DNA from: Schmidtea nova
Taxonomy: Eukaryota
Direction: 5' to 3'
Length of the DNA stretch: 64,000 nucleotides
Assembly: GCA_044892505.1 (NCBI GenBank)
Contig: CM097883.1
Coordinates: 182,094,001-182,158,000 of the forward strand
The translations under genes and the position numbers were made by a program. Under the pieces are notes generated by a model. That model was given only the letters and a program-made list of their open reading frames with translations, was not told where the DNA came from and searched no databases. Shown here piece after piece: positions 30,951 to 53,400 of the stretch (the stretch's first letter is position 1; the number at the start of each line of letters is the position of its first letter).

Positions 30951-31492
30951 TTCGTAATCTCTGGTAAATTTGAATGGGTTTCGTACATTAAAACGTGAGT
31001 TTTAAATTTATAATATAAAAGTCTTCACAATATTTGCATTTTCAAAATAGTCTTGGGAGGAAATCAGTCAGATAAACGTTAAGTCTACTGTAATAGCCGA
31101 ATTTAATGAAAGTTTTCTGAATATAATATGGCTATAAATGTCTTCAGTGATTTTTAACCTTTTAATTGTCACGACCCACGGAATAGCCATAAAAATTGCG
31201 GTCCCAGTGCAGTCCAAGTTTGATCTGGTTTTTCTCTGATTTTCTAACTTTTTATTATTGTTGGCAAATTTAATCTTTTATTTATTATTGATTTTTTATT
31301 TGTAAATTGGCTTTCAATAGCAAGCCAAATTCAAATTTATAATTGGAATATATATAATGGACAAAAAAATATACAAAAAACGGGGGAACAGACTAAAAGG
31401 GGGCAATAATCAAACGAATTGTGAACATTACAATTATTTATTATAAAAAACCGTTAAAAACAAAAATAATAAAAGCTAAATTTTATTAAATC

Positions 31493-32378
31493 TTATAATT
31501 GCGGGAAACTTGGTTTCTTTAAATAGACAGATTGATGCGAATCATCAACTATGTTTTCTGATACTGGTGAAGGCTTATCAACTTCGAATCCTGATCCCCT
31601 CAATAGTCCATCAACACTGGCATTTTGTCGATTGGGAACAACAGGAACTGAAATAGAACCAATAGGATTAATTGTAACAAATACGTTATTAGTCTTACGC
31701 ATAAATTCAGTGCTACCGGGAAACAATGATATCGGTGCTCGATCATCCGATACTTGTGCTAATAATATTCTCGCATATGCCTCTTCCAATTGTCGGGCTC
31801 TTTCAGCCGCTTGTCTACGTTTCTCTTCCAATGTCAATTTGCTGGGCCGATAACAAGGGGTGTCCATAATAGTATATGGCTCAGGAATTGGTGGCACAGA
31901 TGTCGGGAATTTCAACAGATTTGACAGAACATCTTCATAGCAATACATTCCCGTATTCAACGGTTTTGAAGTTGTTTTTGTATTTTCTGCAGCTGAAACA
32001 CATATATAATTAAGACAAATAGTGCTAGCGTTTCACTTAATACTACGGAGTTTAATTGGTGCACACGGACGAATCAGTACGTCACGAATTTCATAAACAT
32101 TGACCCCTTTAAGAAGCAGCATGTATTTGATGTCGGTTAAATTAGTAATATTTCGATTGGAATTTTCAGTTAGTTTTCTTGAATCATAACCCAAAGTTAA
32201 TAAAACTAGATGATTATTTATAATATATAAATATGAGAAATCATAAATTTGTTATAAGCTAACAATTTATTACAATGCGACACATGAGATTAAAAGCATG
32301 TGAATCAGAATTTTTAAAACCTATTGACTCCAATATGGAAGCAATGGATGAGTGTAAACATTCAATTATTGGATCCAT
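31493..32378 (-). CDS. TAF8: TFIID subunit 8; exons 32378-32264, 32205-32047, 31992-31493 (257 aa)
   Basis: Histone-fold N-terminus (SIASILESIGFKNSDSHAFNLM...LGYDSRKLTENSNR..NLTDI) and TAF8 C-domain (VPPIPEPYTIMDTPCYR...RRQAAERARQLEEAYARI). GT-AG introns of 58 and 54 bp preserve the frame. Confidence 0.82.
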
Positions 32379-33555
32379 TTAGAATGAACACAATTAAAGT
32401 CTTTAAAATTTAATAAAAATTTAAATAAATCGCCATAAACATATATTATTAAAACAAATGACAAACATTTTATGAAAATATCGATTTTTCTTACTAAAAT
32501 TGCAAAAAATACAACTCAATTTCTATTTCATAAAATGCTTTGTATGATTAATAAAATAATAAATTTTGAATTTAGTATTATTATAAATAAATTTAACTTC
32601 AAATCAACAAAAAATACAATAAAATAAAATATTTAAGATGGTTCATCATTGATGCATATAAATTATCAATTTCTATTCCATTCTTTTCAATAGTTAACTA
32701 TTTAATTTTATTAGTTTCGAATACATTAAAATGTATGATTTTTTTCGTGGATTGTGGGAAGGTATCTAGCCTTGAATTCCTATGGTTACGAATGTTAATT
32801 AATAATAATCAGTAAAAATTCCTTTGACTCCTCCATCTTTATCCTAAAATATATACGGGAACGTATGTCTACGTTAGTAGTGTATATCTGTGGTAAATAG
32901 GTTGCTTCGGCAGTGAGGTCGCTTATCTCATTTTGCATTCTCACCTACTAGAGTGCATGTAGTAAACAAAAAATTAGTATAAATACGATGCTGATCTTAT
33001 TCATTCAACGTTTCAGTTGCCAGTCAACTTTACCATCGGTGAATGAGTTGATTAATTTTTGATGTTGCTTTTGTCACTGTAACCTAGAAACCGTTATGCT
33101 GGGTTCATGGAGGGGTTAGATGAAAAATGTTCTAACAATGACTAAGGATCCCTCATCCATGATCATACATAAAATGTGCAACTATACACTCAAGCGCCCT
33201 TGATTATTTCCCTGGAAAATCAAATTGGTGATGCGCATGGTGGTGAAACAATGATGGGCAGGTGAGCACTATTGCTAGTACTACTCCCCATTTAGAAGGA
33301 CTTACGCTTTACTGGTATGCTATGTAATTCACCTAAAATCTGGAGAATTGATCTTTATTATAATTATTTCATTCCTTTACCGTATATAAAATTTGCATGA
33401 AGTTTTCTAATTTGGTGCCCTTATAATTGTTTATTTACTTTATTTTTATTTATCAACTAATTTAAGAAATAGCAAAAATGACAACAATTCAAAATTCCAT
33501 TTATTTTCTATTAAGCTACTAAAAATTCCTTCTGGGGGGAACACTTCATTTAATA

Positions 33556-34096
33556 ATTAATCCTCGGATAATTTGTGTAGCCTGTCTACCTGACTTTGCA
33601 ACTTTTGGGCGAAGAGTTTTCGTTGTCGACGCTATTTCTGTCCGATTCGCTTACGCTTTTGATGCGTATTGACGATTGGAGTGGTAGTGTTGATTGGTGA
33701 ATTTGGTTCGGCGCGGTTTTCGATAAGACCTTCGACGTCCGTACCTATCGAGGTTCCCAATTTTTTCTCCGCCGTCCATTCCTGGTATGTTATAGGTCGT
33801 ATTTGATCCTTTAACTCCCGTTCGATGTAGGAAGTCGTCACGGAGTGAAGGCATTTACGAAGCTCGATTTTGGTAGCTTCCCACTCCATCCTGTAATCAT
33901 CCGCTGTCCGTTGTGCTCGCTCTGTTTTTCCAAGCTGCTCCTTCATTCGAGCAGGAGCGAACCAGCTCTTGCGCAGGTACGCGATCTGCGCCTCAGCTTT
34001 GGCTAGATTTTCTTTGAGGAGACCCAATTCCTTATCTTGGGCTCTCCGAATTCGCCACATCTTTTCGATTTCCTTCTGAGCGGCTGCTAGGTCCAT
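33556..34096 (-). pseudogene. LTR ORF B homolog (ORF 33632-34096, continuing past one TAG)
   Basis: QKEIEKMWRIRRAQ...WFAPARMK...KRKRIGQK*RRQRKLFAQKLQSQVDRL. Confidence 0.85.
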
Positions 34097-34266
34097 TTCT
34101 ATAATTTAGCTAAATTAAAATTTGATGTATCGTCCTCAGGTCAGGCATTATTTATATTTATCAACATTCTCTGCATTATGATATTAAGACAAAACAAAAC
34201 AAAAGAAAAAAAATCAACACCATGAGTATTACTGACTTATTTATTATTATTAAATCATAATGATTA

Positions 34267-34731
34267 TTATTGTGGAAATAAAATATGTAGTTCGTGATTT
34301 ATGGGGGTTCTGCGAAGTCTGGCCCATGAAAATGGGGATTGTTCATCGTTGCATTCTCTTCCGAACGACTTTTTTGGTATGAATGCTCGCAGCCCTAATT
34401 TGGACAATTCCTTTCGGGGGATGTGTCCCCAGTAGATAAGCTGGTTTGGCCTTCCGTCGGCATCATTGATCAAGATGACCATCTGTCCAAACTTCTCGGA
34501 GTAGGGTCTTTTTGAGACTGGCCAATCCGGTCCGGCCTCCCTGCCATCCGCCCAGATGGAGAATGGGCATCTCCGATTAAACCCTCGACGCCATTTGTAA
34601 ACTTGCGCATTGATGGTACGCAAAATCCGTGGTGGCAGCTCCTTGAATCCATTTGTCGCTCTCTCCTTCTCGATTTCCTCTTCCGAGGTGCGGATTTCGG
34701 TTAGTCGATAATTGATCTCTGCTGCCATCAT
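34267..34731 (-). CDS. LTR ORF A homolog (154 aa), unknown function
   Basis: Intact ORF sharing RT.NAQ..KWRR, CPFS.W and .YWGHIP..LG with the other LTR copies. Confidence 0.8.
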   Translation of the reverse strand: MMAAEINYRLTEIRTSEEEIEKERATNGFKELPPRILRTINAQVYKWRRGFNRRCPFSIWADGREAGPDWPVSKRPYSEKFGQMVILINDADGRPNQLIYWGHIPRKELSKLGLRAFIPKKSFGRECNDEQSPFSWARLRRTPINHELHILFPQ

Positions 34732-36858
34732 CTGTACTATCCATTTATCATGTATAATTTATATATAAAGCAAACATTAATAGGTTTCTAAATTTTTATA
34801 CATTGACTTGTCTTCGCCGTGATGTACCGCGGTCGAAATAATGTAATCACAATTTGTCCTGCGCTATGTACAGCGGTCAGGAAGAATAAAAATTCGGTTC
34901 TAAGATTTCCGCGCTATCTACAGCGATCGGTTTATAAATTCATAATTAGGATATTTCGCGCTATTTACAGCGATCGGTTTATATTTAGGTTTCTAGATCT
35001 AGTTTGGATTTCCGTCGCAGTCTGACGCGATCAGAATTTAATGGACGTACGTGTATACCTGTGTATACTTGTTGATTTCTAAATTTGATTATACCGATTG
35101 AAATCGGACTTTAACCCTGGTTGGATCGACAATTTATGTTGACTTATTCGAAATATTTCTACTTTTTATTCACCTCTCTCGACTCTGGGAGTTCAATTCC
35201 AACTTATTTTACTAAATGCTCTGGTGATGAGTCCGCCATACCCCTTAGGTGTCCCTCACCGTCAAATACCCCTCTAATTTTTTACTATTGCAACCGTGTA
35301 ACTCATCCTTTGTGCAACCAAAAAATAAAAATTTTCAATTATCTCCAGTAAATCGACTGGAATAACTCGAATTATCAAAATCTCGTTATCGAAAAATTTA
35401 TCAGACTAAAATTAGAAAAAGGTTGAACCTCCATGTGAGACCGTTAAGCCCCACAACGACGACTCGGGCTCCCTCGCCGCGTGAGCAGCCTAGGAAGCAT
35501 CACTATATGCATGGATAAAAAGTAAAAACAAATAAAAATTCAGCCTTTAAATAAGTTTTAATGAAAAAATCATGGTACATGACAAAATAAAATTACTCCT
35601 TAGTTTTCCGGATTGGTAGTTTCTTCAACAAATTTTCAAAAGTTAAAAGTTCTCTCAAGTTAACAAGTAGAAAAGTGTTAAAAATTGTGATTTTCGGATC
35701 GGTATTTATACTGATCTGGCTGGTCAGATTGACCAATCAGGATCAGACCGTCCATCAAAGTGTTTTTACCATTTTATTTAAATCTAAATATTATTTTATT
35801 TCCTTTTCCGGTTTCTCGCTGGGTGGTCCTGGTTTTTCAAGTAATTAATTAATTACTTGCACTATTAATTTATTTAATTCTTAATTTTCTTATTTCAGGC
35901 CCCCTTTTACTGATTGTTACCGTTTTATTTTTAAAATTTCCTTTTGCTGGAAATTTATTAAATATTATTTACTATTTTATTTCTATTTTTAATTTTTCCT
36001 TTATTGCTATTTTTGTGTTTATTATTTTAAACTTTTATTTTATTTTTGTTGTTTTAGCCTATTTGGTGGGCCCAACAGTTATGAAATACAACCGGTAATT
36101 ATGTCGGTACTGTATGCAGTGGTATGAGAACCAACGACCAAGTGAGCTTCGTTGGTTGTCGATAAAAGGTCTTACGCTCATGATTTCTTAATCTTTCAAG
36201 ATCCATTCATTAATTGTTTTGTATCTTTTAGAACATCATTTATTAATAACAAGCTTCTGCACTCATTTGTCTTTTAACATTTTGAATATTGTTGAGTTTT
36301 CAATGTTTTACCTTAGTCGATCTATATAATCTAATCTATATAATAACATTAAAAATGAGAAGTTTTTGGTTAATCTATTTTCCGCTCGTTAAAGTGGATG
36401 GGGCGAAATTTAGACCCTTGGTCTAAGGCGCCATAATTGCTAGGGCCGGCCCGAATATACTGCTCAAAAGATTTGTTTAATCTTTCATAATTTACAATAA
36501 AAAATTCAAATTATAAACAATAATAATCTTAAAATTTAGATTGCAAAATTATATTTCTAATCACAAAATTATTCTGAATATTAAAAGATACAATGCACAT
36601 ATTTTATTAAAAAAAATTAATAACAAAATTCATAAAAAAGCGCAACATTATCCAATTAGAAAAGCGAGGTAGTGTGAATCCTACAAAATTACAAATGAAA
36701 AAGCAAGTTGAAATATTGACAGGCACTAATATATTAATAAAAAATTTTAATACTAAAAAGCAAACTTTAGCAAAAAAAACCATAGAAAAATATTCCAGAA
36801 AAATCGCAAATTTAAATGCACTCGATATTCATATTTATATATATTAAATACAGTGATG

Positions 36859-37821
36859 CTACGATTCTGATTCCACCAAATCCAAGAATACCGCAACATC
36901 ATCTTTAATCTGTCTGAAATCCTTCAAATCACAATGAGGTATATCAGTGTTGGCCATGTATTCATCTAATCTCACCATTTCATTGAGAACTAATTTCATT
37001 TTGCTCTTCAATACTGAAATAGCTTGTTGTTGTTTTTGTAATTTGCTCTCCAACACCTCAACATGTTGATTCTTTCTCTCTCGGCATTTTCTGGCAGCTT
37101 CTCGATTCTTTTCCCTCTTGCGTTCAAGCCGTCTGGTTTCATCATTCGAGTTGCCGGATTTCTGATTCAGCGCGAATTTCGTATCAAAAACGGAATGCAA
37201 ATCATTGCGATGAGAAATCAATTGCGGACAGGGATTGAATTGAGTTGCAGTGGTGTTGGGAATAGTTATTGTGTTTGTGCAACTGTTGTACTGATAATTA
37301 TTCGAATACGGCATGTAATTATTATTATTAGGAGGGCATGATTGTATAATCGTTAAACCGGGGGAAATATTTGCTGGGATAAAAGTATTTGAACTAAACC
37401 GATCGGCATTTGGATGAAATAAAATTGCACTAGTCAAATTGGCATTTAAATCAATTCCAACTGGTGATGTATTGTTATTATTGTTAACATTTTGCTGTTG
37501 TTGTGAAACTGACAAAATTTCATCATTTAAGCTGTTTGGATTAGATTTGAAATCTTCATTAATTGCATTGGAAGACTGAGAAAATAGACTAAATTCGAAT
37601 TAACTGAAAATTAGAAAATAATGAGAATTTCAAACTCACTCTGAGATATTAGATTGGGGAGAAATATTGGAAACAGTATTTTGGCAATTGGTAGTATTGA
37701 TAATATTTATCCCAAAAATGTCATTGTTTATTTCTCCATTTATAGAATTGGGATTAAATGAGAAATTATTCTGTAAATATGAGTCATGCTCTATTTTTTC
37801 AGATTTAAATAAATGTTGCAT
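36859..37821 (-). CDS. AP-1 family (Jun/Fos/ATF3-like) bZIP transcription factor; exons 37821-37640 and 37588-36859 (303 aa)
   Basis: Basic region RKREKNREAARKCRERK followed by a heptad zipper. A 51-bp GTGAGT...TTTAG intron (37639-37589) joins the exons in frame. Confidence 0.85.
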
Positions 37822-38249
37822 ATGTTAGTCATACAATGAGTAATAAATGTGTTGTCAAATATTAGGATTTATTTAAACAAGAATGAAACATTTATTTAAT
37901 TAATTATTTTATGTATGTCAATTTTACATATTTTTCTGGTTATTATCTATTTTCTGATTATTTTAGAGAAAAAAAATGATCTTTAACATTTCTTTCAATG
38001 TGAAAAATCTAAATTCAAAATACTGAATTATTAATCAATTTACAAAAATTAAATATTTCTAAGCAGTTTGTAATTTATATAAATCAGCTAAATGTACGAA
38101 AACAATTAAATGTCAGAACATAGCCAATAAATAATTTCAGTAAAGTTTTCTTTTATGTTCAAATGAAATTGAATTCGAGTTTGAAATATATTCAGTTGTG
38201 AAGTGTATTTATGTAACTTATGGTGGGTTATTGGCAAAATGCGAAAACT

Positions 38250-38760
38250 AATTACTGTGGCTCTATCTTCAATAACCTCGCATATAAACAATGACTAACT
38301 ATATTGTTATTCATTACATCGTAACATTGGTTCTGTAACAAGTGAGTAAACATTCGCAAAAAGTGAGCACTGACTGATTCAGAACTATAATTGACCTGTT
38401 GTATTGGGTGGGTTCAAGTGCAACCGATAGAAGGTATAATGCCCATTTTCGCTCCTTCCTCTTTCAACTATCTACACTTTTCTAGTGATACTAACGTAAA
38501 ATTATATCGTTTATTTTCCTGGCGAGTTGCTGGTAAACAAAATAACATTAACTAAAGCTATGGCTCTATTCTTCAACAACCCTACATATAAACTTTGCAA
38601 AACAATCTTGCTACCCGTTACCCAGTAACGATGGAAAAGTAACAAGTAGGCGGACATCTGCAACAAGTGAATTTCGAGTGGGTCAAAACTATAATTGACC
38701 GAATGTTTTGAGTGAGTTTAAAGACGACCGACAGAAGGTATAATGCCCATTTTCTTCCCA
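38250..38760. repeat. Diverged ~300-bp tandem duplication upstream of the bZIP gene
   Basis: GGCTCTAT.CTTCAA..ACC...CATATAAAC, AACTATAATTGACC and AGAAGGTATAATGCCCATTTTC each occur twice, about 300 bp apart. Confidence 0.75.
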
Positions 38761-39255
38761 AACTTAATCTATCTCTTATAAATATTCGTTAAAATTCTTT
38801 TGGTTATTAAAATAAAAATTCACAAATACATTATTAATTAATAAATAAATACTTAATGATTTATTGGATATTCAACGCAAATGACTATTGTTGGGCCAGC
38901 CAAATAGAGAAAAAAAATGAAATAAAAGTAGATTAATTAAAACAAAAAAGAGAAAAATAAGGTAAAAAGGAGAATATTTATTTATTAAAAGAAAGGAATA
39001 ATATAGTAAAAATATAGAATAACTAAGTACAAGCTATAAATAAAAATAAATGAATTTATAGATATTAACGGGCCCAGGAGACATCTAAAAACAAATAAAA
39101 TACAAATAATAATAATTAAAACCAAATAAAAGTACTTGTTATTGAATAATTGTTTTTGAAACCCGGACCTCCAAGGAAGAATACAATCTAAAAAATAAAA
39201 ATTAATTAGAATCAAAAACAATAATTAAAACCCACCATGAAATCGGCCAAATCCG

Positions 39256-39299
39256 ATTGGTCAGTCTAGATCAGACTGATCAGTATAAATACTGATCAG
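39256..39299 (+). promoter_or_regulatory. Putative LTR promoter: inverted CCAAT (ATTGG) plus TATAAATA box
   Basis: The same arrangement lies ~370-395 bp from the LTR start in all three copies (TATA at 27397, 35710 on minus, 39284). Confidence 0.7.
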
Positions 39300-40226
39300 A
39301 CTTTGGATAAAACAGACTTAATACCTAATCTTACAACGTCAGTTGAGAGTGAAAAATTTAGCTCACTAATCAAATAGACTTTGAATTCTAGACGAACCGA
39401 TCGAAGCAAACCCAGACGAATTAGGTATTTTGGTTTCTGTATTATTTTATTTATGAGTGTGTCATTTGCTTTGTCATTTATCTATTGATCTAATTATTTA
39501 TGTGTTTATGCATTCATGTGTTGAAATTTGTTATATGAATTAAACGTTATTGTGATTAGACTCAACATTAAAATATATAATGATCATATTAATTTTGCGC
39601 CGTTGGGAGCTTTAGGTTCCCAAGGTGTCCGTCCGTGGCGTGGTGCTCGAGGGCTCCACACACGGTAAAGTAATAAATAGTAAAGCACAATTTTATTAGT
39701 AGTGGTTGAGACTTGCACATGGGACACCCAACAAATCCGGGAAATTATTTTCTGATCATTTTAGCTACAGAGGGGACGAGAATTTTTTGATAAAGCTTAA
39801 AGATATGAAAGAAGTTGTTAACCGGGAGGAGGCACAATTTTTCACCCTCACCATAACGCAGCTGTTTAATAAACGTCTAATAAACCTTAGGAAAATTATG
39901 TCGACCGCGTTTGGTACAAAAGAGCGTTTTTCGAATAAGCTAGGGATACATGACGGGAGAGAGCTTCCGTTTTAAGTTACCAATATTTTGAAACTCCAAG
40001 CAGACAAATCACCATTTTTTCGTCTATCAAATTGATCATAAACAGATAAAGCTAAGTAGATACGAGAGTAATGCATATTGTAACAAACAACAGTTTTTTC
40101 TTGATTTCAGCTAAGGTCTAAGGGGAAGGCAAATAATAAAGGAATCACGATGAGAGATAACATTTACTATGATTAATTATTGATGTAAATTGTAACTATT
40201 ATAAAATTCAGCATCGTTTTGGAATC

Positions 40227-40703
40227 ATGGCTAAGCATAGATACACTATCAAAAAACGACAAGAACGAGCCCGAGTTAGCCCATTAAAGCCGGCTCCTTT
40301 CGAGATTTTACAGCAAATCCACCAAAAGATGTGGGCATGGCGCCGAGAGCTCGAAACCGCCTGTCCATTTACAGTATGGGACCATCCACGGCACCACGTA
40401 TGGTACCGGGGATGCGCTAGTTGGCCAATCATTCCAGACGAGGAATACGAATCATGGCACGCCGCCTGGTTCATCATGATGTTGGACAAAGGTGGATTCC
40501 CGAGATGTGTCATTTATTGGGGGTTCATTCCAGCCTCTACCTTCAAGGAATTGGGGTTCAAGTTCAATACAGCCATCCGACCCCTCCGAGAAGCTGAGAG
40601 AATCCGTTTCCAGCAGGCCTCGTCCCATAACACAGGAATTCATACAAATTTGCAGATCCGCTCGGTATTTTCGTATCGAGGAAAAATGACCGAGGATGAA
40701 TAG
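40227..40703 (+). CDS. LTR-encoded ORF A (158 aa), unknown function
   Basis: Intact ORF with protein-level conservation (W.WRR, CPF.VW, IYWG.IP, LG) to homologs in both solo LTRs. Confidence 0.8.
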   Translation: MAKHRYTIKKRQERARVSPLKPAPFEILQQIHQKMWAWRRELETACPFTVWDHPRHHVWYRGCASWPIIPDEEYESWHAAWFIMMLDKGGFPRCVIYWGFIPASTFKELGFKFNTAIRPLREAERIRFQQASSHNTGIHTNLQIRSVFSYRGKMTEDE

Positions 40704-41019
40704 CTGAATCAATGGCCGCCTGTTTTTAAATTAAATAAATGTTTTAAAGAATTCTGAAATGTTCGTTTTGTTAATAGTGTTGTCATGTAGATTTAGTATT
40801 GTAGTTGTTATAGTCATTAGGAAATTCATTTATTAATATAAAATTAGTTCAATAAACCTTTTGAGTCTTCAATAATTAGATAGTTAAATAATTTTGCAAA
40901 GAAATCAATAATTAAAAACATTAGTATACATCTCGTTTAATAATAATAATAGTTGTTTAAATAAAATAACATTGTTGATAGGCCCTCCAGTGAATTTATC
41001 GTTATAATCTTCAGACAAC

Positions 41020-41604
41020 ATGCCGACTTCAGAAAATTCGAAGAAAATCATGGGACAAATTCAAGAGAGAAAGCTGAGGGACCAGCAGCGACAGATCAAG
41101 CGACTCACGGTCGCCAATGATGAATTGAAAGCGAAGTGGTTCTCGCCCGAACAGATGAAGGACCAGTCGAAAAAACTCGAGCGAGTGCAGGAAGCATTGG
41201 CTACAACCAAATTGGAACTGGATGCCGTCCAGCGAGAACTCCGAAATTGCCTGAACGCAGTAACAAGAAGTTACATCGACTCCGAATTGCGAGCGCTAAT
41301 TCGGCCGATCACGGCTCAGCGCTGGATACAATGCACTCACCAAGATGTCGCTTGCGGGACGGAAGAGGAAATCATCATGGCACCCACTCTTACAACGGAA
41401 GATTTGCCTATTTTTCCCAGCGATCCCCCGAGAACAATAGCGTCAGCACCGGCCACAAACCCACAGCTTCGAAAGCATCGAATGGGATCGCGACAGCGTC
41501 GTCGTCGCCGAGAATTTGCAAGGCGCCTGGACGAACAAATCCACCACCTGAACTCCTTAACCGAAGCAGAGTTAATCCAGGAGATTAGCCTGGAGTTTGA
41601 ATAG
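41020..41604 (+). CDS. LTR-encoded ORF B (194 aa): coiled coil plus Arg-rich motif
   Basis: Intact ORF, homologous to the ORFs at 29278 and 34096; contains RKHRMGSRQRRRRREFARR. Confidence 0.82.
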   Translation: MPTSENSKKIMGQIQERKLRDQQRQIKRLTVANDELKAKWFSPEQMKDQSKKLERVQEALATTKLELDAVQRELRNCLNAVTRSYIDSELRALIRPITAQRWIQCTHQDVACGTEEEIIMAPTLTTEDLPIFPSDPPRTIASAPATNPQLRKHRMGSRQRRRRREFARRLDEQIHHLNSLTEAELIQEISLEFE

Positions 41605-42137
41605 GAAAATCTCCATGTAACATAACAACCTGTCTTTATTATTTTAATAAAGTATTACTGTGTAAATTTTTTCTCTCATCGTGTGATTTCACTAAATAAA
41701 ATAAGACTACATAAGTAATTCGTAGAACTAAAAATCGCATCGTAAAACCTACACCGACCGTTACTTAGCAGCGAGAGTTTTCGTAGGCTTGTAGAACAGC
41801 GAGGGAGAGCGTCATTGGGAAAAGCGTGTGATAGATCATAAGGATATGTAGTATAAAATTCAGTAGGAAACGAACATCCATAGAATGTAAATGCGTAAGA
41901 CCTTCTATCGGCAGCAAGAACCCGAGGGAAGATAAATGGGGAGTAGTTTTGGCGACAAAGCTCACCTGCCCATCATTTTTCCACCACCGTATGCAGTACC
42001 AACTTGACTAGTAGGGAATAGTCAAGGGCATACGCGTGTAGTAGTCATGTTATGTATGGTTATGGGCGCGGAATCCCTAGTATGATTAATTGTTTATTTG
42101 TATTACTTAAAACCCACCCATAATCCCAGCATAAATT

Positions 42138-42156
42138 TGGGGGCTCAGCCGGGATC
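42138..42156 (+). promoter_or_regulatory. Primer-binding site, tRNA-Pro-like
   Basis: TGGGGGCTCAGCCGGGATC, 6 nt after the LTR end. It is complementary to a tRNA 3' end GATCCCGGCTGAGCCC-CCA and close to the canonical Pro PBS TGGGGGCTCGTCCGGGAT. Confidence 0.8.
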
Positions 42157-42484
42157 AACTTTGTTTTATGCGGAAAAGGTGAACCCAACGACAACAGAGA
42201 AATTTAAAATCAGAAGTTTGTGAGAAAAATAGTAACCGAATAAGTAATCGAGACGAAAGCGAGCTACGTGGAAATAGATCGTTATAAACAGAGAATCAAA
42301 TAAACTGAGTAAATAAAAACAACAACACAATGAAATAGATAAATTAAATAAATGCAATTATAAATAACAGGTCGGGACGACAATTTACCGAAACACGGGG
42401 GGAGGCTATAAAACTGTCAGAAACGAAACACAGTACTACTTTTCGAATAATATTAACACAGTGTTTAAATAAATTATCTAGGAA

Positions 42485-42946
42485 ATGGAGGAAAAACTGA
42501 AAGAAATCGAGGAATTTTTCAACACCAAGAACGATACATTTGAGACAGTCTGCGAAAAAATAACCCGAATAAGAGCATCCGAATATGAGGAACCTACGAC
42601 ACAAACTGAGGAAACAACTGAGTTAATAAAAATCATAGAGAAAGTAAATAAACTCGATATAAATACGCGATATAAATGGTACAAAGCACGATTAGAGGAT
42701 GCCGAGTTGAATATCAGATGCCGACATATAGAACAGCAGTTAAGCCTAACATATAACCGATGGACGTCGCAAGGGGTCGAGGCAGCAAAACAATATAAAC
42801 AATGTTACATATGCGAAAACAGTGAAATCCAAATAATGTTTTTACCATGTGGACATTTTCGATTCTGTAAAAACTGTGCGAATAAGTGTGATGAGTGCCC
42901 CATGTGCAATTTCTCTGTAGCTGATAAAATTGTAGTTTATTTATAA
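42485..42946 (+). CDS. Accessory protein with a C-terminal IAP/Mdm2-type C3HC4 RING (153 aa)
   Basis: CYICENSEIQIMFLPCGHFRFCKNCANKCDECPMCNFSVADKIVVYL* at the extreme C-terminus; no BIR domain seen. Confidence 0.88.
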   Translation: MEEKLKEIEEFFNTKNDTFETVCEKITRIRASEYEEPTTQTEETTELIKIIEKVNKLDINTRYKWYKARLEDAELNIRCRHIEQQLSLTYNRWTSQGVEAAKQYKQCYICENSEIQIMFLPCGHFRFCKNCANKCDECPMCNFSVADKIVVYL

Positions 42947-43419
42947 TAAATATTTAGAGTGTTAATATATTGTATCGAATGACAAAGTCAAGGGAGCAAT
43001 CAACAATGTTAATTAATTTTTGAGCTACTGTCAAGTAGTCCGTTAAGCACCCATTGGGAGGTACCAGTTGATCAACCCACTCGGGGTATATAGAAAGGGG
43101 CCAATCGCAAATGTTGGAAAGCTTTTGTGATGTGATTGATCACCACATCCCGCATTAGTAGACCAACGCGATCTTTTTGTATATTTTGGTTGGGGAGAGA
43201 AATAGGGAAAACCCTGATGAGGTAAGATGCGCGCAGAGAAAATAATAAAAATTGAATTATGACTGATCAGCGAAAGAATTAGTAATAAAACAAAGAATCG
43301 AGGAATTGTAGAGAAAAATAAGAGGTGCATAATCAGCTCGCATGAAATTGAGAGAACTCAGCTGAGAAATTGTAGTCGCTAGCGAAGTTAAGAATTACGA
43401 TTAACCGGTTAAGGAAAAG

Positions 43420-43633
43420 TTATCAGCGGGTTGTCCCTTGAAACAAAGGGTTATTAGAATTTGTCCCTTGAAACAAAGGGTTATCAGCGGGTTGTCCCTT
43501 GAAACAAAGGGTTATTAGAATTTGTCCCTTGAAACAAAGGGTTATCAGCGGGTTGTCCCTTGAAACAAAGGGTTATTAGAATTTGTCCCTTGAAACAAAG
43601 GGTTATCAGCGGTTTGTCCCTTGAAACAAAGGG
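43420..43633 (+). repeat. Array of 7 CCCTTGAAACAAAGGG hairpin cores in alternating 31/30-bp units
   Basis: Cores start at 43435, 43465, 43496, 43526, 43557, 43587 and 43618. Confidence 0.95.
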
Positions 43634-43639
43634 TTGAGG

Positions 43640-43825
43640 CCAAAGAGCCATATTGAATGACCTAGCTAGGCGTTATTGAGAGATATGATTTAAGGCCAAT
43701 AGAGCCATTTGAGATAATTGAGATATGAATTTAAGGCCAATAGAGCCATTTGAGATAATTGAGATATGAATTTGAGGCCATAAGAGCCATTTGAGATAAT
43801 TGATATTAATTAGAGGCCAAAGGAG
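43640..43825 (+). repeat. ~41-bp tandem repeat (AGGCCAATAGAGCCATTTGAGATAATTGAGATATGAA-like), about 4 copies
   Basis: Direct sequence. Confidence 0.85.
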
Positions 43826-43849
43826 CCAATAGGGATATCCGGATATATA

Positions 43850-44062
43850 GTAACGGAGGGAATATAGGCCCAGGGTTACAATTGTTGAGTAGCAACGGAG
43901 GGAATATAGGCCCAGGGTTGCAATTATTTAAAATTAAAGGAAGATAGTAACGGAGGGAATATAAGCCCAGGGTTACAATCGTTTGAGTAGCAACGGAGGG
44001 AATATAGGCCCAGGGTTGCAAGTGATAAGAAATAACAACAGAGGGAATATAGGCCCAGAGTT
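43850..44062 (+). repeat. Five copies of AACGGAGGGAATATAGGCCCAGGGTT with variable spacing
   Basis: Direct sequence. Confidence 0.88.
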
Positions 44063-44612
44063 GTGATCGTCGACGATAATGAGAATAGTGCGCACCGATA
44101 ATAGAGAAATGCGAGTAAAGCTGATTATGCGACCTAAAATAATGCATGCAAGTAGAATCGAGAAATAGGAGCTGACCGGAAAGACCGGCAGAATTAATAA
44201 TTAGAGGCTAGCAGAGAGAAAGATAAAGAGATGAAAAAATAATAATCGAGTCAAATGACTCAGGGAATTAGAGCGTTCGAACGACAAATAAATTGGGAGA
44301 CCGCGGGAAAAATAATCGATGTATTTTAATAACCGATAGATAATTGTTATGACTAAATAGATAATTGTGACTAGTATATAGATAATTTAAATAGACTTAA
44401 ATAAAGGGGAATCTGGGAATGGGGAAAAATAATAGAAACCCAGTAATGAGAAGTCCCGTAAAAAGGGAATAAAAGCGCAACGATAACAATAGAGTATCGT
44501 TGAAGTGACATTTGTATTTTAGATAAATCAATCAAACCAAACCAATCAACTAAGGAAGAAAAGAATCGGAACACGATAAGACAGGAAAATTGAGTATACA
44601 AAAGTAATCCCG

Positions 44613-47489
44613 TTGAGAAAAGGAGAAAAGAGTGTCATAATAAAACCAGCAGAAAAGAATAAAGCTACCAAGAATAATAATCAGAAAGGCCCAAAAGGAA
44701 GTAAAGCAAGGCAGATAATAATACAAAAGTCGATTATCGAAAACGATAAATTATCAGTAACAAGCAACAGTTCAAGCAACAAAGAAAATCAAGCAGAACC
44801 CGAGAGAAACCCAATAAGTGAAATAGAAGTCGACAAAACCAACAACGATTATATAGAAGAAATAGAAGACGAAGTAGAACAAGAAACAGAAAGTGACGAT
44901 ACCGATAACGATAGTAAAGCATCAGATAACGAATCAGCAAAGGAAACTGAGATCGACCGAAATTCAAGTGACGAACCTAACAGTGAACTAGAAACAAGAG
45001 GAAACGAAAGTAAAATAACTACAGACAGCGGAATCGAAATGAGTGAACCAAGAGAAGAGATAAAAGACAAATTTTCCGGAGAACCGTTTAATGGAGATGC
45101 GAGTAAATTAGAAACTTTCTTAAAGGAATTTGGCATATTCGTGGAAGTATGCAAGTGGAAACCAGAAACAACTGTAAGCAGAATTCAGCTATATTTGAAA
45201 GATAGCGCATTAGATCTATATTTGGAAGCAAAGAATGGAACTAATCCACCTACAAGTTGGTCAGCGATAAAGGACTTTTTCCAACAAACCTTTGGAATAA
45301 ATAAAGTATTGAATGAGGCATTCACGGAATTCTCAATGAGGAAACAAAAGATAAATGAATCGAATGCGGTATATGCAAGCGAATTGAAAAAGTTAGCAAA
45401 GTTGATCTTTAATCAAGACAGCCCAATAAATGAGGAGTTAATGGCAGCTATCTTTGTGGGAGGATTAAGAAGACCCGACATAAGAGCGCAAGTTGGATGT
45501 CAAGGTTGTAAAACCATCGACCAAGCACTAGAAACAGCTAATAGATTTGAACTACACATGATAGGAAATGACGGTAGAATCTATTTAGCTATGGATACAG
45601 CACAAAACGAACAAGAAGTGAACCTGAATAACCACATTCCAAATTCACAACAATTAAACCGACCACCACCGCAACGAAGGAATGAAGGGAATAAAGTATC
45701 AAATTACGGAAATCAAAACAATTACAACCCCCAAGGACCAACGAAACAATGCAAAACATGTGGGAAATTGGGACATTGGCAACAAGAATGTTATCAGAAC
45801 TTGAATTGTGGAAAATGTGGAGTAAAAGGGCATTCAGAGAGCAGATGTTACACAATAACCTGTTTTAATTGTGGACGACCTGGACACCTATCAAGAAATT
45901 GCGGACAAAGAAGCAATCAACGAGGAAGCTGGCAGAATACCGGAAACCGACAAAACTATGGAAACCAACCAACTGGTGGAAACCGACAGAATTATGGAAA
46001 TCAGCCAAATAATGGAAACCAGCCGGAATACGGAAACCAACCAAATAGTAATAATAATAACCAAAATAAAAATACCACTAAAGAGATACATTTAATGCAA
46101 GAGGTTCAAAGATTGACGGAGCTGATAAACAATACAACCAGAGGAAATCCGCAAACAGGTCAACAACAAATCAATATGATGAGAAAAATAGAAAGCGAAA
46201 ACGAACGATTGAATCGGGAAAGTCAAGCACGACATGCTCAGGAATGGGCAAGAATACAAAGAGAAGAGGAACAAAAACAGCAAGAAAGAGAACGACAACC
46301 TCTAAGAATTAATATGATGAGAGCAACCAATCAAACAAATACCCACGAGAAAGAGACTGTACCAGAAATAAATCCAACAAACCCGAATCCAACCAACAAC
46401 GAAGGCCGAAAAGAGATAATACAAGAAGATGAAGAAGCAGAAAAAGAAACAGAAAAGGAAGTAGAAAAAGAAGGGAACCAAGAAGAGAAAAGGAAACTCG
46501 GGAAAAGAGGAATGATGGTAATTTTGCCAAACAAGCACGTGTTTCGATTCCAATATAACATAAAAGAAGAAGTAGAAATATTGTTCAATAAAGTGAATGA
46601 AATGGCTCCAGGAGTAACGAAACTGCCCAGAGAAGCATTCCTAAAAATAGAAGGTGCACCAGAAGTAAAATTGAAACTAACGGATACATGGGAAAACCTG
46701 GGAGTAGTAGAGACAAAAAGAAATGTGATGGTAATCAAGGAAATAGAACCAGAAGGAATTCCATCGCCAGTGCGTCACGAAACACGAATCAGTCGAATAT
46801 TTAAAGGGAAAATGATACGAAGACGGTTGGGAGAAATAGACGAGTTAGAACGAAAAATGAGAAAGGTCGGAGTAGTAGACGACAAGAGTGAATCAACACA
46901 AAAAGCTATTAAAAGTGAAACAAGACCAACGGAAAATACACCAAGTGAAATCAACCAAATAAAACACATTAACATGTTGAGAGGCCAGGCAAAGAAATTC
47001 TCAGATGACGAAGAGGATAGTGACGTCAGTAGTCTAGCCGGAGATATGCTAAACGAACCGGAAATTGAAGACAAAAAGATAGAAGTAGTAAAGACACCAG
47101 AAACTATTCAAGTAAAAGAGGACGAGATCCAGAAATTATTAGATAACGCGCTAGAAGTAATATATAATGAGGAATTCATCGACAAGAAACACTACCGGAA
47201 ATTCATGAGAGCAATATTACAAATGAACTATAAAGAGTGGTTACCAGGCCGGGAAGTAGAAACACTAAGCCAATACGTAGGAAAATTATTAAAAGAACCA
47301 CTCCATGAATATATAATACTAATAGAGATAAAAACATGTTTGCCAAGGATTTGGATCAAAACTCCACTCACGGAAGATATTTATCAATGGGTGGAAGACA
47401 GATTAGGGAGTTCATATAAAAACAAATTCCTCTATTCACAGAATGGACTAGTGAAGAAAAGGACGCATTTGATAGAAACAGGCATATGA
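44613..47489 (+). CDS. Gag part of the giant polyprotein: acidic N-terminal region, capsid-like domain, three CCHC knuckles, N/Q-rich and charged regions, start of a ubiquitin-like domain
   Basis: The frame is open from 44580 and the first in-frame ATG is 45039 (MSEPREE..PFNGD..LETFL..F); the true start is uncertain. Knuckles CKTCGKLGHWQQEC, CGKCGVKGHSESRC and CFNCGRPGHLSRNC lie at 45750-45902. Confidence 0.88.
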   Translation: MRKGEKSVIIKPAEKNKATKNNNQKGPKGSKARQIIIQKSIIENDKLSVTSNSSSNKENQAEPERNPISEIEVDKTNNDYIEEIEDEVEQETESDDTDNDSKASDNESAKETEIDRNSSDEPNSELETRGNESKITTDSGIEMSEPREEIKDKFSGEPFNGDASKLETFLKEFGIFVEVCKWKPETTVSRIQLYLKDSALDLYLEAKNGTNPPTSWSAIKDFFQQTFGINKVLNEAFTEFSMRKQKINESNAVYASELKKLAKLIFNQDSPINEELMAAIFVGGLRRPDIRAQVGCQGCKTIDQALETANRFELHMIGNDGRIYLAMDTAQNEQEVNLNNHIPNSQQLNRPPPQRRNEGNKVSNYGNQNNYNPQGPTKQCKTCGKLGHWQQECYQNLNCGKCGVKGHSESRCYTITCFNCGRPGHLSRNCGQRSNQRGSWQNTGNRQNYGNQPTGGNRQNYGNQPNNGNQPEYGNQPNSNNNNQNKNTTKEIHLMQEVQRLTELINNTTRGNPQTGQQQINMMRKIESENERLNRESQARHAQEWARIQREEEQKQQERERQPLRINMMRATNQTNTHEKETVPEINPTNPNPTNNEGRKEIIQEDEEAEKETEKEVEKEGNQEEKRKLGKRGMMVILPNKHVFRFQYNIKEEVEILFNKVNEMAPGVTKLPREAFLKIEGAPEVKLKLTDTWENLGVVETKRNVMVIKEIEPEGIPSPVRHETRISRIFKGKMIRRRLGEIDELERKMRKVGVVDDKSESTQKAIKSETRPTENTPSEINQIKHINMLRGQAKKFSDDEEDSDVSSLAGDMLNEPEIEDKKIEVVKTPETIQVKEDEIQKLLDNALEVIYNEEFIDKKHYRKFMRAILQMNYKEWLPGREVETLSQYVGKLLKEPLHEYIILIEIKTCLPRIWIKTPLTEDIYQWVEDRLGSSYKNKFLYSQNGLVKKRTHLIETGI

Positions 47490-50400
47490 CCAGGAGAGGT
47501 GACAACACTATCGATATGCGATGATAAGAGAGAAGAGAACCTACAAGAAGTAGCAAAGGAAGCAAATATGTGTTTCGAGAAGAAGATAAAACCACGGTTA
47601 GAATATGAGAAAGGACGAATCTTACGAGGAAATCTAAATTCCATGATAGAACAAATCATCCCACAAATCAAAAAACATAGAAAGGAGTTAATGAGAAGCG
47701 AATACGAAAAGTTGAAACGATGTATCGAATGCATACGTGACACAAGTCACACGAGATGGTCACAGATCTCATACGGAAAAGTAATTGCAAAAATGGGAAA
47801 AGCAATGTTCAGACAAGGGAAAATAACAGATCTGAAAATTGCAGTAGAGTTACCTAATGAGGATACCAAAGAAATTGAAGTGGTAGCAGATTGTACCATA
47901 AAAGAATTAGTAAATGTCATCAACGAGACACTATTACAAAGAGAACCAGAAGAAGAATGGGAAGATGACATAATCATGAAATACAACGAACATGTATTAT
48001 GGGATCACGATGAAAGACGGCTATATAAAATTGGTATATGGGATAATCACCAAACCATCCACGTTATCAGAATGGACGATACACCAAGAGAAACTGCTAA
48101 AGATGAGAAAAGAGAACGGGAACGAAAAAAAGAAGTTGTGCATAAATTACAACAAATAGTAGACATTTATCGAAATTGGCGGATTTGGCCAGAATGGGAA
48201 GACGTATTAGAAGAACTCAATCTCAACAGACGATTACCAACACCTGTAGAAAAACAATGGAACGAACGAGGAAAATGTTGGGAACCAAAAGCAGGCGAAT
48301 ACGAAGAGGAATACGGAATAGGCATAGAAGACGATCACAAACCGGAAACCGGAAGAGTCTGTATGGTAACAAGAAAAGCCATGCCAGCAGATTTAGACGG
48401 ACCAGAAACGACAACCATGTGGTTGGAAAGAGAAAAACAAAAAACGGAAGAATTTGTCGAAATATTAAAAACCAATGCGCACGGCAAGAGAAAAGTAGTA
48501 AAAGGTCTCGCAGATTTTTTCGTAGTTAATGGAGAAGACATAACATGCTTGCGTAAAGTAGCAAAAGCAATCGCCGAATACAAAAGAGTTAACGAGTGGT
48601 GTCCAGAACAATTGGATCACGTAATTAAAAAATGGAGAAACCAAGAATTCTCGCAGGAATCGCCACAGAAAGTACACCTAAGAATAGTATATCCGAACCA
48701 GGAAAAGGAAGAGTTTTGGGTAGGGATAGCGGAGAAAGTTCGAGACATTAAAAAGAAATTGAGATATGAACCACCATTCCATTTACAACACCAAGGACGA
48801 TCATTAGATAACAGCTTGGAAATTGGAATAACGCCAGCGCAATTAGATATCGCAAATACATTGACAGTGGCAGCAATAGCAGGCCAACCATTGAAATTGA
48901 AAGAGGAAAAGAAACCAAAGGGAAGTATGAGTACGCCGAGCCCAATGAAATCGGTAATGACTCCAGGAACAAGCTCAGAACAAGCTAGAACAACACCAAG
49001 AGATACAAGAGAAAGAACACCACCAGAACCATACGATGTAGACGAAATTTTTACAGATAGCGATGATATGTTAGAGGAGTTAATAGAGCTAACAAAAGAG
49101 AAAGATGATAATATTTTCGAAAGAATTCAAGAATTACCAACAGCAATACCGGTAACCAACACCGAAGATGAAGTTGAACAAGAAATAATCATCGAAGAAG
49201 TTAATGAAATAGCAGAAGAGGAAGCAAGGAGGGCAAATGTAGAAAATGTACAATTCACACAAGAAATGGAAAGATGGTTAGAAGAAAGAGCCAATGAACC
49301 AAGAGACGTTACAGAAGAAACTGGACGAGAAACAAGATTAGTAGAAACGGGCACGACAATGGATAAACGACCTAGAGGTAGACCCAAGATGGATCCAGCA
49401 AATGTAGTTATAAAATCAAGAGAGGAAAAAAGACGGGATCAATGGGATTTGTGTCTAAAGAAACTAAATAAAATAGCCGAAACGAAAGAAAAAGAAACAA
49501 CACAAACATACCAAGGCGAGGAATGGATATCAAAGATGTTAATGGAAATACTGGCAATAATCGATCCGGAATTAAAGAAATGGTGGAGAATAAACGAAAT
49601 AAGCGAAAGGGCGAAATCACTGCATAGCGCCATCGCACCAATCCTACCAGAACTAATAAAAGAGAAGACAAGGTCAAACCACCTAGATTGGCAAGGAACC
49701 ACGATGTTGATAAAGAAGTTAACGGAAGGAGCAGAGACGGATAACAAATATTTAATAGCTATAGCATACACCATCTACAATCTGCTGACACTGAGTAGAG
49801 GTCGACTGAAACCTACAGCACTCGAAAGACATATAAAGAATACAGCCAAAATTATAGAGAAAGAAATAGAACCGTACATCATCAGTAAAGGAGGATGGGA
49901 AACATTCACAAAAACGAACCAAAAGAAAAACCAAGCCAAAAATATGAAAAAGAAATTCGAAGAGATATTGGGAGAATTGGAAAAGGAAAAGTCGGGAACA
50001 GGAAACGGGAAATCATCACTAAACCTGAGTTCTATCATTATGATGATGTTAATATGGATGATTAGTACTGACGGAGCAACAGCATTTGAAGTATTCGATT
50101 GTGATCAAATGGCATTAGGTGAGAAATATTCACTACGAGGGACAGAACAATGTAAGGACGCAACCCCAACGGAGTTAAAAACATTAAAAAAGAGACAATT
50201 ATACCACGTATATCAGGAAGCTGAACTGATAAGAACAATGGTCAGGGAATGCAAAGTTTATAAAACCAGATTTGCTTTTTATTGTGGACACCGCCATTAT
50301 TCAGCAATCGTGATGCCAGGAACGGAAAGAGAATCGGTAATGCTGCAAGGAGAAGACTGTGAAAAATTATTTAAACATGGAGAAGTAGAGACTAGAGATA

Positions 50401-53400
50401 GAGTAAAGATAAGAGGAAAAACGGGAGTGATATTGCAACAAACATATTATGTAGCAGGAGCTATTACGGGAGGAGAAGGGTACTGCCAAGGAGCAACTTA
50501 TCCAATATTCGGAGTAGCAGCAACAAACCTAGTGGTAATAGATACGTATACAGTGGAACTAAAAACGTACGAGGCATTCTTCGATCCAACGACGGGAGAA
50601 ATGAAAACTCTACCTATGTGCAAAATCGAGTCAAACACTTGTCAGACTGGTATGTCAACCCTAACCTACCAGATACGAGGAAAGGAATGTCAACTACAAC
50701 TGTTAAAGGAAGCAGAATTCGATGAGATACAAGGGAAAACCTTCCAAGAGGAAGAAGAAGACGAGGCAGCAAGAGGAAAAATACTTCAAGACACAGTACG
50801 GGGAGAGAAAAAGATTGAAACCCGAACACAAGAAAAACAAATTAAAATGAGAAATACACCAACGGTACTAATTACCTCAGATGCAGATATCGGAATGAGG
50901 TTTGTAAAAGGAAAAACAGCCTTGAAATGCGGAGTAGCTATGTTGGAAACCAACTACCCCGGCATTTTTGTATCAAAACAAGAAGTACCTAGTGCGAAAC
51001 GCAAAGTGCACACGAACGATGTTAAATTACACCTTTACATGAACAATAAAATGGATTTTCTGTTCCATAGAGGACAAGCGTCACTACAAAAAGTGTATTA
51101 CGATTTAATTAACAACGATTGCATATTAAATAGGGAAATATTAAAGACAAAACTAGCGGTAGCAATCACAAACCCGGATAGTGCAATGCCATTATTACCA
51201 TTAAGAGAAGGTCATTTTGGAAGGGTAGTCGGAGAGGTCATGTACGTATACATATGTAAAAAGACAAATGCGAAGGTAGCGACAATGACAAAACTACAAC
51301 CAGGTCAGTGTACTAACGAACTAGAAATCGAATATAAAGGGAAAGTAAGATATGTACAACCAGTGACAAGAATCATAAATCCAATAAGCTTCGAACCAAA
51401 TCCTTTCAATTGCAGCAACGCATATGGACCACTATACCAAAAACCAGACGGAAATTGGGTTATGTTTCCGTCAAGAACAGAGGTACCAGCACCAAGGGAA
51501 TTTGAATTGATGCAACTATCAAAAGGACGAAAATTTAAAGACGTAGACGTAAGCAATATGGGATTCTATAACGCAAAGGATTTAGAAGCAGCAAGACAAA
51601 ACATACTATTTCCGGCAAGACGAGAAGCGGTGTTATCCAGTATTGTAACAATAACAGGAGGAACAAATTACCAAGGTGGACCAAATTACGAATTATTATT
51701 GTCACCAGCCCACTTTAAGAAGGCAACGGAAAACATGATGAAAGCGATGTGGGGAAGATTTTTAATATTTGGACAAATGATGGCAGGAATACTTGGTGTT
51801 ATACTAATTATACAAATAATACGGGTAATAATAACGCAAATGTTAGCCTGTTTTGACATCTATAAAAGAGAAAAGAAAGTAAATTGGAAATTGGTGGTAG
51901 GATTCTTACCATTTCTGGCTAAAACAATGGTATTACACGGTCATTCGAAAGATATTCACCGAATAAAGAGACTCCTAAAAATACTGGCAAAAATGAAAGG
52001 AACCGATGAAGAGGTGGGACGAAAGTTTAAAAAGATAATGAATAACGAGCAAGCAAGACAACAACTAAAGAAAGAGAGAAAAGGACTATGGGAAAGAATG
52101 AAAGGGTACAGAACCCAAGACGATTCCAGTGACGACGATGATGATGATAACGAAGGAGGTCAAGTATTTAAAAATCAAGTACCACAGTATGTCGAAAAGA
52201 ATCCAGCGGAAATGTGGAAATGTTACGCACCCCCACCGACCATGTACCAAGAACCAACACCAGGGATGAGACAAAATACAATGCAAATGATGCCGATGAC
52301 AAACATATATCCTATGATACCAGAAGACTATAGAACGAGACGGTGCAGAAGCGTAGATCCGCAAGGAGACTCACATACAATTGCAGTAATGTCATCAAAC
52401 ACCGGTCCAGTATTAACTACAACAATCGAAATTAACGGAAGGGAAATAGAAGCGATGATCGATACAGGAGCAAATATCTCAGCAATAGATATAAAATGGA
52501 TACCACAAGAACAAAGACGGGATATTGAGAGAACCAACGTTCACGTAATAGCATGCAGTAAAGAAGTAGTAGAAGTTGCCGGAAGATGGTGGGTAAAGAT
52601 AAAACATCAAAACACGGAAATCGAAACGTACGTAGCAGTAATACCAGCACTGAGCGTACCATGCATTATAGGTACGGATCTGATGCCAGCATTATTTAAA
52701 GAAATAGTTATTGACCTCGGAACAATGAGATTAAAGGATAGGACAGGACAGATATGCGCAATAGAAGCAAAAGTAACAAGTTCGAAACAAATAATCGTAC
52801 CAGCACGGAGAGAGAAAATATGTTTCGTAAAAATAGATCCTACAATAGAAGGTGACATGATCTTTGAACCCAGTAAAAGATTTGAAAAGAGAAAGTCGTT
52901 GCCAATGGCAAGGGGATTAGTGAGTGCGAATGACAACGGAGAAATCCCGATAAATGTAGTAAATTTCGATGAGGAGGATAAAATAATTTATGAAAATGAA
53001 AGATTAGGTAAACTAACTCCAATGATAGATATCGAAATACCAATAAAAGAAGGAGTAAAAGAGGAGGAACCCACTTGGAACATTAATAGCCAACTATTAA
53101 ATGAGGACCAAAAGAAACAGCTAGAAAGATTACTGATGGAATATAAAGACATATTCGCAGCATCCGATTTAGATTTAGGGACATGCGACGTCACACTACA
53201 TACGATTCCACTAACAGACGAAACGCCGATTGCGTTAAGACCATACAAGTTAGCTGAAGCGCAAAAATCAGTAGCAGAAGCAGAAGTACAGAAAATGCTA
53301 GACGCAGAAGTAATTGAACCAAGCTGCTCACCGTGGCAGTTCCCAGTTGTAATGGTGAAAAAGAAAGACGGAACACAACGATTTTGTATTGATTATCGGA

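Follow-up and report, generated by a model that had tools for sequence, protein, structure and literature searches.

On the evidence of codon comparisons, ORF B is a real, selected gene inside the long terminal repeat (LTR) of a giant Ty3/gypsy element. The type of element is already known; what appears to be new, going by the literature searched, is the presence of two selected genes inside its LTR, one of them encoding a basic helix. We explain the ORF B protein as a dimeric RNA-processing or export regulator that would bind the element's own structured LTR RNA, a reading that we prefer and hold at somewhat less than even confidence. The gene lies in a 64,000-nucleotide stretch of Schmidtea nova DNA, called the window below, and all positions refer to the first letter of that stretch (Table 1).

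The element and its LTRs

Three homologous LTR modules, each starting with TG and ending with CA, were found in the window: the 5′ LTR of the main element and two solo LTRs. ORF B had been described in an earlier note as LTR-encoded, and this was confirmed by the TG...CA termini, the target site duplications (TSDs) flanking the solo copies, a primer-binding-site-like 18-mer, and the reappearance of the first nine bases of the LTR at the end of the window. We take the 18-mer to read like the complement of the tRNA-Pro 3′ end. A family contig from sequencing runs begins exactly at the first base of the 5′ LTR, 38889. In DNA contigs of four runs from one study, depth was 18–27 on two unique bins and 320–580 on single contigs of the main LTR and the RING region; this corresponds to about 15–25 near-identical copies, depth being a poor measure of copy number.

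Table 1. Positions of the LTRs, coding sequences and candidate signals in the window
Feature	Position	Strand	Remarks
Solo LTR 1	27024–30113	+	3,090 bp; 4-bp TSD
ORF A homologue, solo LTR 1	from 28632	+	frameshifted
ORF B homologue, solo LTR 1	29278–29871	+	one stop
Solo LTR 2	33097–36077	−	2,981 bp; 4-bp TSD
ORF B homologue, solo LTR 2	from 34096	−	two stops
ORF A homologue, solo LTR 2	34731–34267	−	intact
5′ LTR	38889–42131	+	3,243 bp; TG...CA
CCAAT box (reverse) and TATA box	39256–39291	+	inferred promoter
Twin RNA hairpin	39597–39672	+	ends at donor-like GT (39665); candidate response element and first-exon end
ORF A	40227–40703	+	second LTR gene; 158 aa; no known relative
Acceptor-like CAG	41012–41014	+	ends 5 nt before ORF B ATG (1 and 2 nt in the solo copies)
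ORF B	41020–41604	+	194 aa; intact in main copy
Parts of the ORF B protein	residues 8–84; 99–109; linker; 149–179; 182–192		predicted coiled coil; short helix; linker; Arg-rich helix; helix
AATAAA	41646–41651	+	candidate poly(A) signal, 41 nt after ORF B stop; GT/T-rich tract then follows
Donor-like GTAAG, then conserved structured RNA	41895–42131	+	LTR 3′ end
Internal region	42132–63991		21.9 kb; element about 28 kb in all
Primer-binding-site-like 18-mer	42138–42155	+	just past the 5′ LTR
RING-finger accessory ORF	42485–42946	+	
gag	45039–47489	+	CCHC knuckles
4,144-aa ORF	47568–60002	+	mononegavirus-type fusion glycoprotein, then PR-RT-RNase H-IN, then ankyrin repeats
3′ cassette, four accessory ORFs	60128–63787	+	starts at 60128, 60576 (TRAF/MATH), 62072 and 63215
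3′ LTR start	63992–64000	+	first 9 bases of the LTR again; rest beyond the window

From its domain layout and a length near 30 kb, the element is of the Burro type of giant Ty3/gypsy elements. In the available part of the published account, the planarian giants Burro and GYPSM1 have Env in frame upstream of PR-RT-RH-IN, together with ankyrin, MATH/TRAF and RING domains and accessory ORFs (PMC6431247). The element described here resembles them in its in-frame env-PR-RT-RH-IN, mononegavirus-like fusion protein, ankyrin, MATH/TRAF and RING domains, tandem repeats and size of about 28 kb, and differs in having gag as a separate ORF and TRAF downstream of pol (PMC6431247). BIR and BCL2-like domains gave no Pfam match in the element at E values up to 0.1. 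The available portion of the Burro account makes no mention of genes inside the LTR (PMC6431247), and the literature searched yielded none for Burro-type elements, although Grohme 2018 and Lee 2026 may describe such ORFs. An envelope gene upstream of pol is also shared with the GAG-ENV-POL errantiviruses of Platyhelminthes, Nematoda and Bryozoa, for which the part of PMC13524379 available to us describes neither LTR genes nor regulators.

Two features of the internal region were noted in passing. Three tandem arrays (periods 61, 41 and 43–45) occupy the leader at 43419–44063, between the RING ORF and gag. The gag TGA and the first env-pol ATG are 78 nt apart (47489–47568); the metagenome relatives L002 and L003 have a single Gag-Env-Pol ORF.

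Conservation of ORF B

A tblastn search of the window gave two homologues of ORF B, at 29278 (+) and 34096 (−), one in each solo LTR. Each is 33–34% identical to the main copy, and the two are 65% identical to each other. The sequence WF.P..MK, which had been called conserved, is present in all three copies. A longer motif in the earlier note, starting TK.EL, fits the two solo copies and does not match the main copy as written; the form common to all three is ELR.CL..VT.SYI..EL...IRPIT.Q.W. The Arg-rich tract quoted there is indeed present in ORF B, and its position is kept in all three copies despite their low identity. The best 15-mer of the main protein contains eight arginines, a number reached in 0.2% of 20,000 shuffled versions. 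The tracts of the solo copies have five or six arginines in 15 residues and are richer in lysine. Arg-rich tracts are not unique within the element, since its 4,144-aa Pol has one other tract with seven arginines in 15.

Selection was assessed by comparing the codons of solo 1 and solo 2 and calculating pN and pS by segment. Synonymous sites were saturated (pS 0.90). Non-synonymous divergence was low in the 107 N-terminal codons, which include the coiled coil (pN 0.16) and in the 38 codons of the basic tract plus helix (pN 0.23), and reached 0.51 in the 37 codons of the linker. The helix behind the Arg tract is conserved to the same degree as the tract. Saturated synonymous sites combined with low pN argue that purifying selection has acted on both the coiled coil and the basic helix, and the low pN of the C-terminal domain indicates that this domain was constrained before the solo stops arose. 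Among the 40 differences listed between family copies, at least four fall in the main ORF B, two of them synonymous and two non-synonymous in the linker.

The solo copies had been reported to carry independent nonsense codons in the Arg-rich tract. The stops do lie at different codons in the two solos, at codon 159 in solo 1 (29752–29754) and codon 155 in solo 2 (33634–33632); a third, at codon 180 of solo 2 (33559–33557), falls inside the Leu-rich helix and had been overlooked. The accompanying statement that the frame still aligns downstream of the stops was borne out, the downstream sequence being both aligned and conserved. Other copies of the solo 2 family, in contigs from sequencing runs, do not have its codon-155 stop. 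All three stops lie within the last 52 codons, for which a rough post-hoc chance of about 0.02 was obtained from counts of sites one step from a stop. We considered whether truncation of the solo ORF B might have been selected, as a dominant-negative form. Decay is preferred because ORF A of solo 1 is also frameshifted and the codon-155 stop of solo 2 is not family-wide; the clustering of the stops leaves a small opening for selection. The solo stops are best read as decay after insertion, and they carry little functional information.

Predicted structure of the ORF B protein

The AlphaFold2 model of ORF B (mean pLDDT 70, pTM 0.25) contains helices at residues 4–40, 43–93 and 99–109, a disordered linker of low confidence at about 105–151, one continuous helix at 149–179 that begins with the Arg tract, and a last helix at 182–192. 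When ESMFold2 was given two copies of the protein, the homodimer scored 0.56 against 0.00 for the best of three controls, with an in-register interface formed by residues 8–84. Contacts agreed between runs by at least 52%, and the partner pLDDT was at least 58. In benchmarks 21 of 30 microbial and 17 of 29 eukaryotic dimers passed the mark for a dimer, and no monomers did (0 of 23 and 0 of 30, respectively); a caveat is that long coiled coils can pass through likeness to solved ones. On these models ORF B is predicted to form a parallel coiled-coil homodimer, and the C-terminal helix lies outside the interface.

The main copy gave no significant result in a simple heptad test (shuffle p 0.98 and 0.22); the N-terminal segments of the solo copies gave shuffle p values of 0.04 and 0.09. 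The coiled coil proposed in the earlier note is thus backed by structure prediction, but not by the heptad test in the main copy.

Searches for homologues

A word-indexed search with ORF B returned 341 candidates, none of which was homologous. An exhaustive HMMER search of 1.84 billion proteins produced two matches, a Copia-type RNase H repeat protein and a bacterial surface-repeat protein; both were rejected as sums of weak matches over repeated units. The best score in the ESM Atlas was 0.87, which has the value of a lead only. There was no match in Pfam, and PDB sequences gave a single weak hit, at E 1.3. No fold in BFVD matched at E values up to 0.001, the model being a weak probe (long helices, pTM 0.25). 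Pattern searches detected ORF B in none of 407 metagenome contigs and none of 209 viral contigs. In these libraries, therefore, no homologue or fold link connects ORF B with Rev, Rex, Rem or any RNA-binding family. Nine env-bearing metagenome relatives of the element contained no homologue of ORF A or ORF B; no LTR was recognised in these relatives, so the absence says nothing about the distribution of the two genes.

ORF A is a second conserved orphan gene of the LTR. None of 114 candidates was homologous to it, and no PDB sequence matched. Leads from the ESM Atlas pointed to primase-type alpha+beta domains from mixed families (scores 0.88–0.92). Its predicted structure had a pLDDT of 41, and a fold search with this model was uninformative (Z under 3).

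Candidate processing signals and predicted RNA structures in the LTR

The CCAAT/TATA block is the best-conserved non-coding part of the LTR and is found in all three copies, 340–400 bp from the LTR start. The twin hairpin begins about 300 nt after the TATA box and is followed by ORFs A and B. Its fold gave z scores of −3.9, −1.3 and −2.6, and 6 of its 25 pairs show two-sided changes. For the 3′ end of the LTR a hairpin with a GNRA loop, a three-helix stem and a terminal stem were predicted; 9 of 47 predicted pairs are changed on both sides between the main copy and solo 2, and the fold z scores were −3.7 and −1.7. These covariation counts rest on two or three sequences, and for three of the eight segments that were folded the result did not clearly surpass that of shuffles (z −1.7, −1.3 and −0.4). 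Summed depth over the 3′ segment is about five times that over the rest of the LTR, which places it in many more copies. Its counterpart in solo 2 lies at 33097–33305 (−), and in solo 1 it is partly deleted. Rfam gave no match within 27000–45100.

Signals resembling those at the start and end of processed messages recur along the element. A YAG ending 0–5 nt before the ATG was present at 10 of the 11 accessory ORFs in the window, compared with 103 of 647 ATGs; the exception is the main ORF A, where the distance is 15 nt. For the element alone the count was 6 of 7 (p about 1e-4). The spacers of the 3′ cassette measure 125, 91, 113 and 81 nt, and YAG stands 1–3 nt before each ATG. In the metagenome relatives L001–L003 the pattern was seen at five of six downstream ORFs. 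Short AT-rich spacers accompany the YAG at nearly all accessory ORFs, both in the window (40227–63787) and in these relatives, at ORFs that start at 10617 and 12241 in L001 and at 11375, 12169 and 13589 in L002; a post-pol accessory ORF in each (L001 10617–12107, L002 12169–13473) encodes a DEDD-type exonuclease (Pfam RNase_T). Of 10 ORFs, 7 have AATAAA at or near the stop, compared with a frequency of 18% in non-coding windows; the count for the ORFs is inflated by two of the seven matches, which overlap the TAA stop itself.

Flatworms, S. mediterranea among them, are known to use spliced-leader trans-splicing, which resolves operons whose spacers are shorter than 300 nt, according to the available part of PMC12582326. 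With YAG, AATAAA and short spacers together, each accessory gene looks like a separately processed message, and the accessory ORFs look like an operon-like string that would be resolved by alternative cis-splicing or by spliced-leader trans-splicing. The acceptor–ATG pattern across the accessory genes is a testable prediction of its own. A full-length RNA runs past six or more acceptor-like sites, and past several sites that resemble poly(A) signals. As such an RNA must bypass all of these, a switch like that of Rev or Rex would have a job to do.

Function of the ORF B protein

In the explanation that we prefer, the conserved CCAAT/TATA promoter near the LTR start would drive a transcript through ORF B. 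This transcript would be spliced to the acceptor before ORF B, either in cis, with the donor at 39665, or in trans, with a spliced leader supplied by the host, and the message would end at the AATAAA behind the ORF. A short spliced message from the LTR promoter would allow the protein to be made early and without a helper. The basic helix would bring the protein into the nucleus and then onto either the twin hairpin or the structured segment at the 3′ end, and the bound protein would let the RNA skip acceptors and poly(A) signals, or aid unspliced RNA in leaving the nucleus. The net effect would be a shift from short processed messages to full-length genome RNA. The protein has what such a switch would need: its gene is placed early, a dimer is predicted, and the two Arg-rich helices of that dimer would be attached by flexible linkers.

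Complex retroviruses are marked by RNA regulators that act in trans. These viruses get their full-length RNA past such sites by means of an early protein that binds structured RNA and multimerises (available part of PMC3856414). ORF B resembles the Rev, Rex, Rem and Rec proteins in being small, in its basic Arg-rich motif and predicted multimer, in a probably spliced message and in the candidate structured RNAs (PMC3856414, same portion). It differs from all of them in having no sequence or fold likeness to them and no conserved canonical nuclear export signal (NES), in belonging to a Ty3/gypsy element rather than a retrovirus, and in lying wholly inside the LTR. Rev multimerises through a short helical hairpin, in place of which ORF B has a long, predicted parallel coiled coil.

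The layout of Rev, Rex and Rec that had been proposed for ORF B stands for the oligomerisation domain, which is predicted, and for the Arg-rich helix, which is conserved, and fails for the Leu-rich export signal. Strict NES classes matched the C-terminal helix not at all in the main copy, once in solo 1 and not at all in solo 2, so that none is shared, and relaxed matches arise in 79% of shuffles. Export of the protein by CRM1 is not supported by these sequences, though an atypical NES may be present. Because neither a conserved canonical NES nor homology was found, we do not file ORF B as a member of the Rev/Rex family; the likeness is by analogy only. A Tat-like function, also suggested earlier, found no support. 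In Tat, a Cys-rich and a core domain precede the basic motif. ORF B shares with Tat an Arg-rich motif and LTR hairpins, but it has no Cys-rich or core domain (the three copies contain three, two and one Cys), and the hairpins lie about 300 nt after the TATA box instead of at the RNA start.

Besides the missing export signal and the negative searches, further points weigh against an RNA regulator. Tracts of Arg and Lys also serve as ordinary nuclear localisation signals; the solo tracts are the more Lys-rich ones, and Pol has a 7-Arg tract of its own; the RING, TRAF and ankyrin neighbours point to host modulation; and structured RNA before the primer-binding site is expected anyway for priming and packaging. 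In a different explanation, the basic tract does no more than direct the protein to the nucleus or nucleolus, and the coiled coil makes it a scaffold or decoy that acts on host proteins involved in silencing, stress or apoptosis, like the RING and TRAF genes of the element. We regard this as possible, if on the unlikely side. Of the conserved blocks the coiled coil is the largest, and it bears the surface motifs WF.P..MK and SYI..EL...IRPIT.Q.W; the same element also encodes RING, TRAF/MATH and ankyrin domains; several other short helical orphan ORFs are found in the element and its relatives; and a RING-BIR gene of Burro1 guards stem cells from apoptosis (cited in the available part of PMC13465017). 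However, the helix that follows the tract shows equal conservation, which goes beyond the needs of a bare localisation signal, and a gene placed after the promoter within the LTR would suit an early regulator.

The strongly conserved promoter in the same LTR would fit a transactivator of the LTR that binds DNA or is tethered to the promoter, in the manner of foamy Tas, Tax or HBZ, with a bZIP-like basic region. A dimer is predicted, and in the single predicted helix 149–179 a basic run is followed by Leu at heptad spacing. The bZIP signature is N-x7-R/K-x9-L in the basic region, with dimerisation by the zipper. This signature is absent from all three ORF B copies, no bZIP match was obtained in Pfam at E values up to 10 while the real bZIP fragment in the window does score, and the basic C-terminal helix is not part of the predicted dimer interface. 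A bZIP identity was rejected on these grounds. The protein also has no acidic or Cys-rich activation domain, and we consider a transactivator distinctly unlikely.

It is very unlikely that the protein is a particle component or nucleic-acid chaperone for packaging or copying a very long, terminally redundant RNA: a 21.9-kb internal region between 3.2-kb LTRs and a basic helix on a flexible linker would fit such a role, but Gag already has CCHC knuckles and no likeness to structural proteins was found. That ORF B is a chance frame or dead relic is scarcely credible, for although both solo copies are broken and no outside homologues were found, non-synonymous divergence is low at saturated synonymous sites, the ORF is intact in a young multi-copy family, and the acceptor and ATG are placed alike in all three copies.

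The RNA-processing regulator that we prefer can be placed in a wider setting, which we put forward tentatively and think rather less probable than not by a good way: the LTR would be a self-contained early transcription unit, and the ORF B protein an independently evolved switch, like Rev or Rex, for the operon-like RNA of a Ty3/gypsy element. Equally speculative is the corresponding arrangement of the LTR, with a short U3 and an R of more than 2 kb that holds two genes; the protein would bind the LTR hairpins, and genome RNA would escape spliced-leader cutting. If the LTR is such a unit, every intact solo LTR is a potential source of the regulator. Retroviral genes that overlap the LTR, namely MMTV sag, HIV nef and foamy bet, are in U3. 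ORFs A and B share with these the placing of protein-coding sequence within the LTR; since they lie downstream of the best-conserved TATA box, they may be in R, unlike sag, nef and bet. A second promoter near 41850, which would put the ORFs in U3, was considered and set aside, with some plausibility left to it: the TATA-like word there is not conserved in the solo copies, and the last 250 nt contain no AATAAA.

If the ORF B protein regulates RNA in trans, then an invertebrate retrotransposon evolved anew, and with another protein fold, the kind of gene control used by complex retroviruses, and this would explain how an RNA of 25 kb can be made whole despite its many acceptors and poly(A) signals. 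No trans-acting RNA regulators of Ty3/gypsy elements were found in the literature searched. Burro1 has been reported to support planarian stem cells (cited in the available part of PMC13465017), and a master regulator carried by the LTR would therefore be a direct handle on the relationship between host and element.

Sequences around the LTR insertions

Within 15 kb (27024–42131) there are insertions from three diverged LTR lineages, all belonging to one element clade, and this clustering possibly reflects an insertion preference. Neighbouring coding pieces are TAF8-like (31493–31948, −) and bZIP (36859–37314, −). Upstream of the 5′ LTR is a direct repeat of 72% identity (38255–38450 and 38558–38754), which is multi-copy in the sequencing runs. 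Near the start of the window, a 734-aa ORF (127–2331) looks by eye like a piece of a protein-primed family B DNA polymerase; a fragment related to it lies near 16482.
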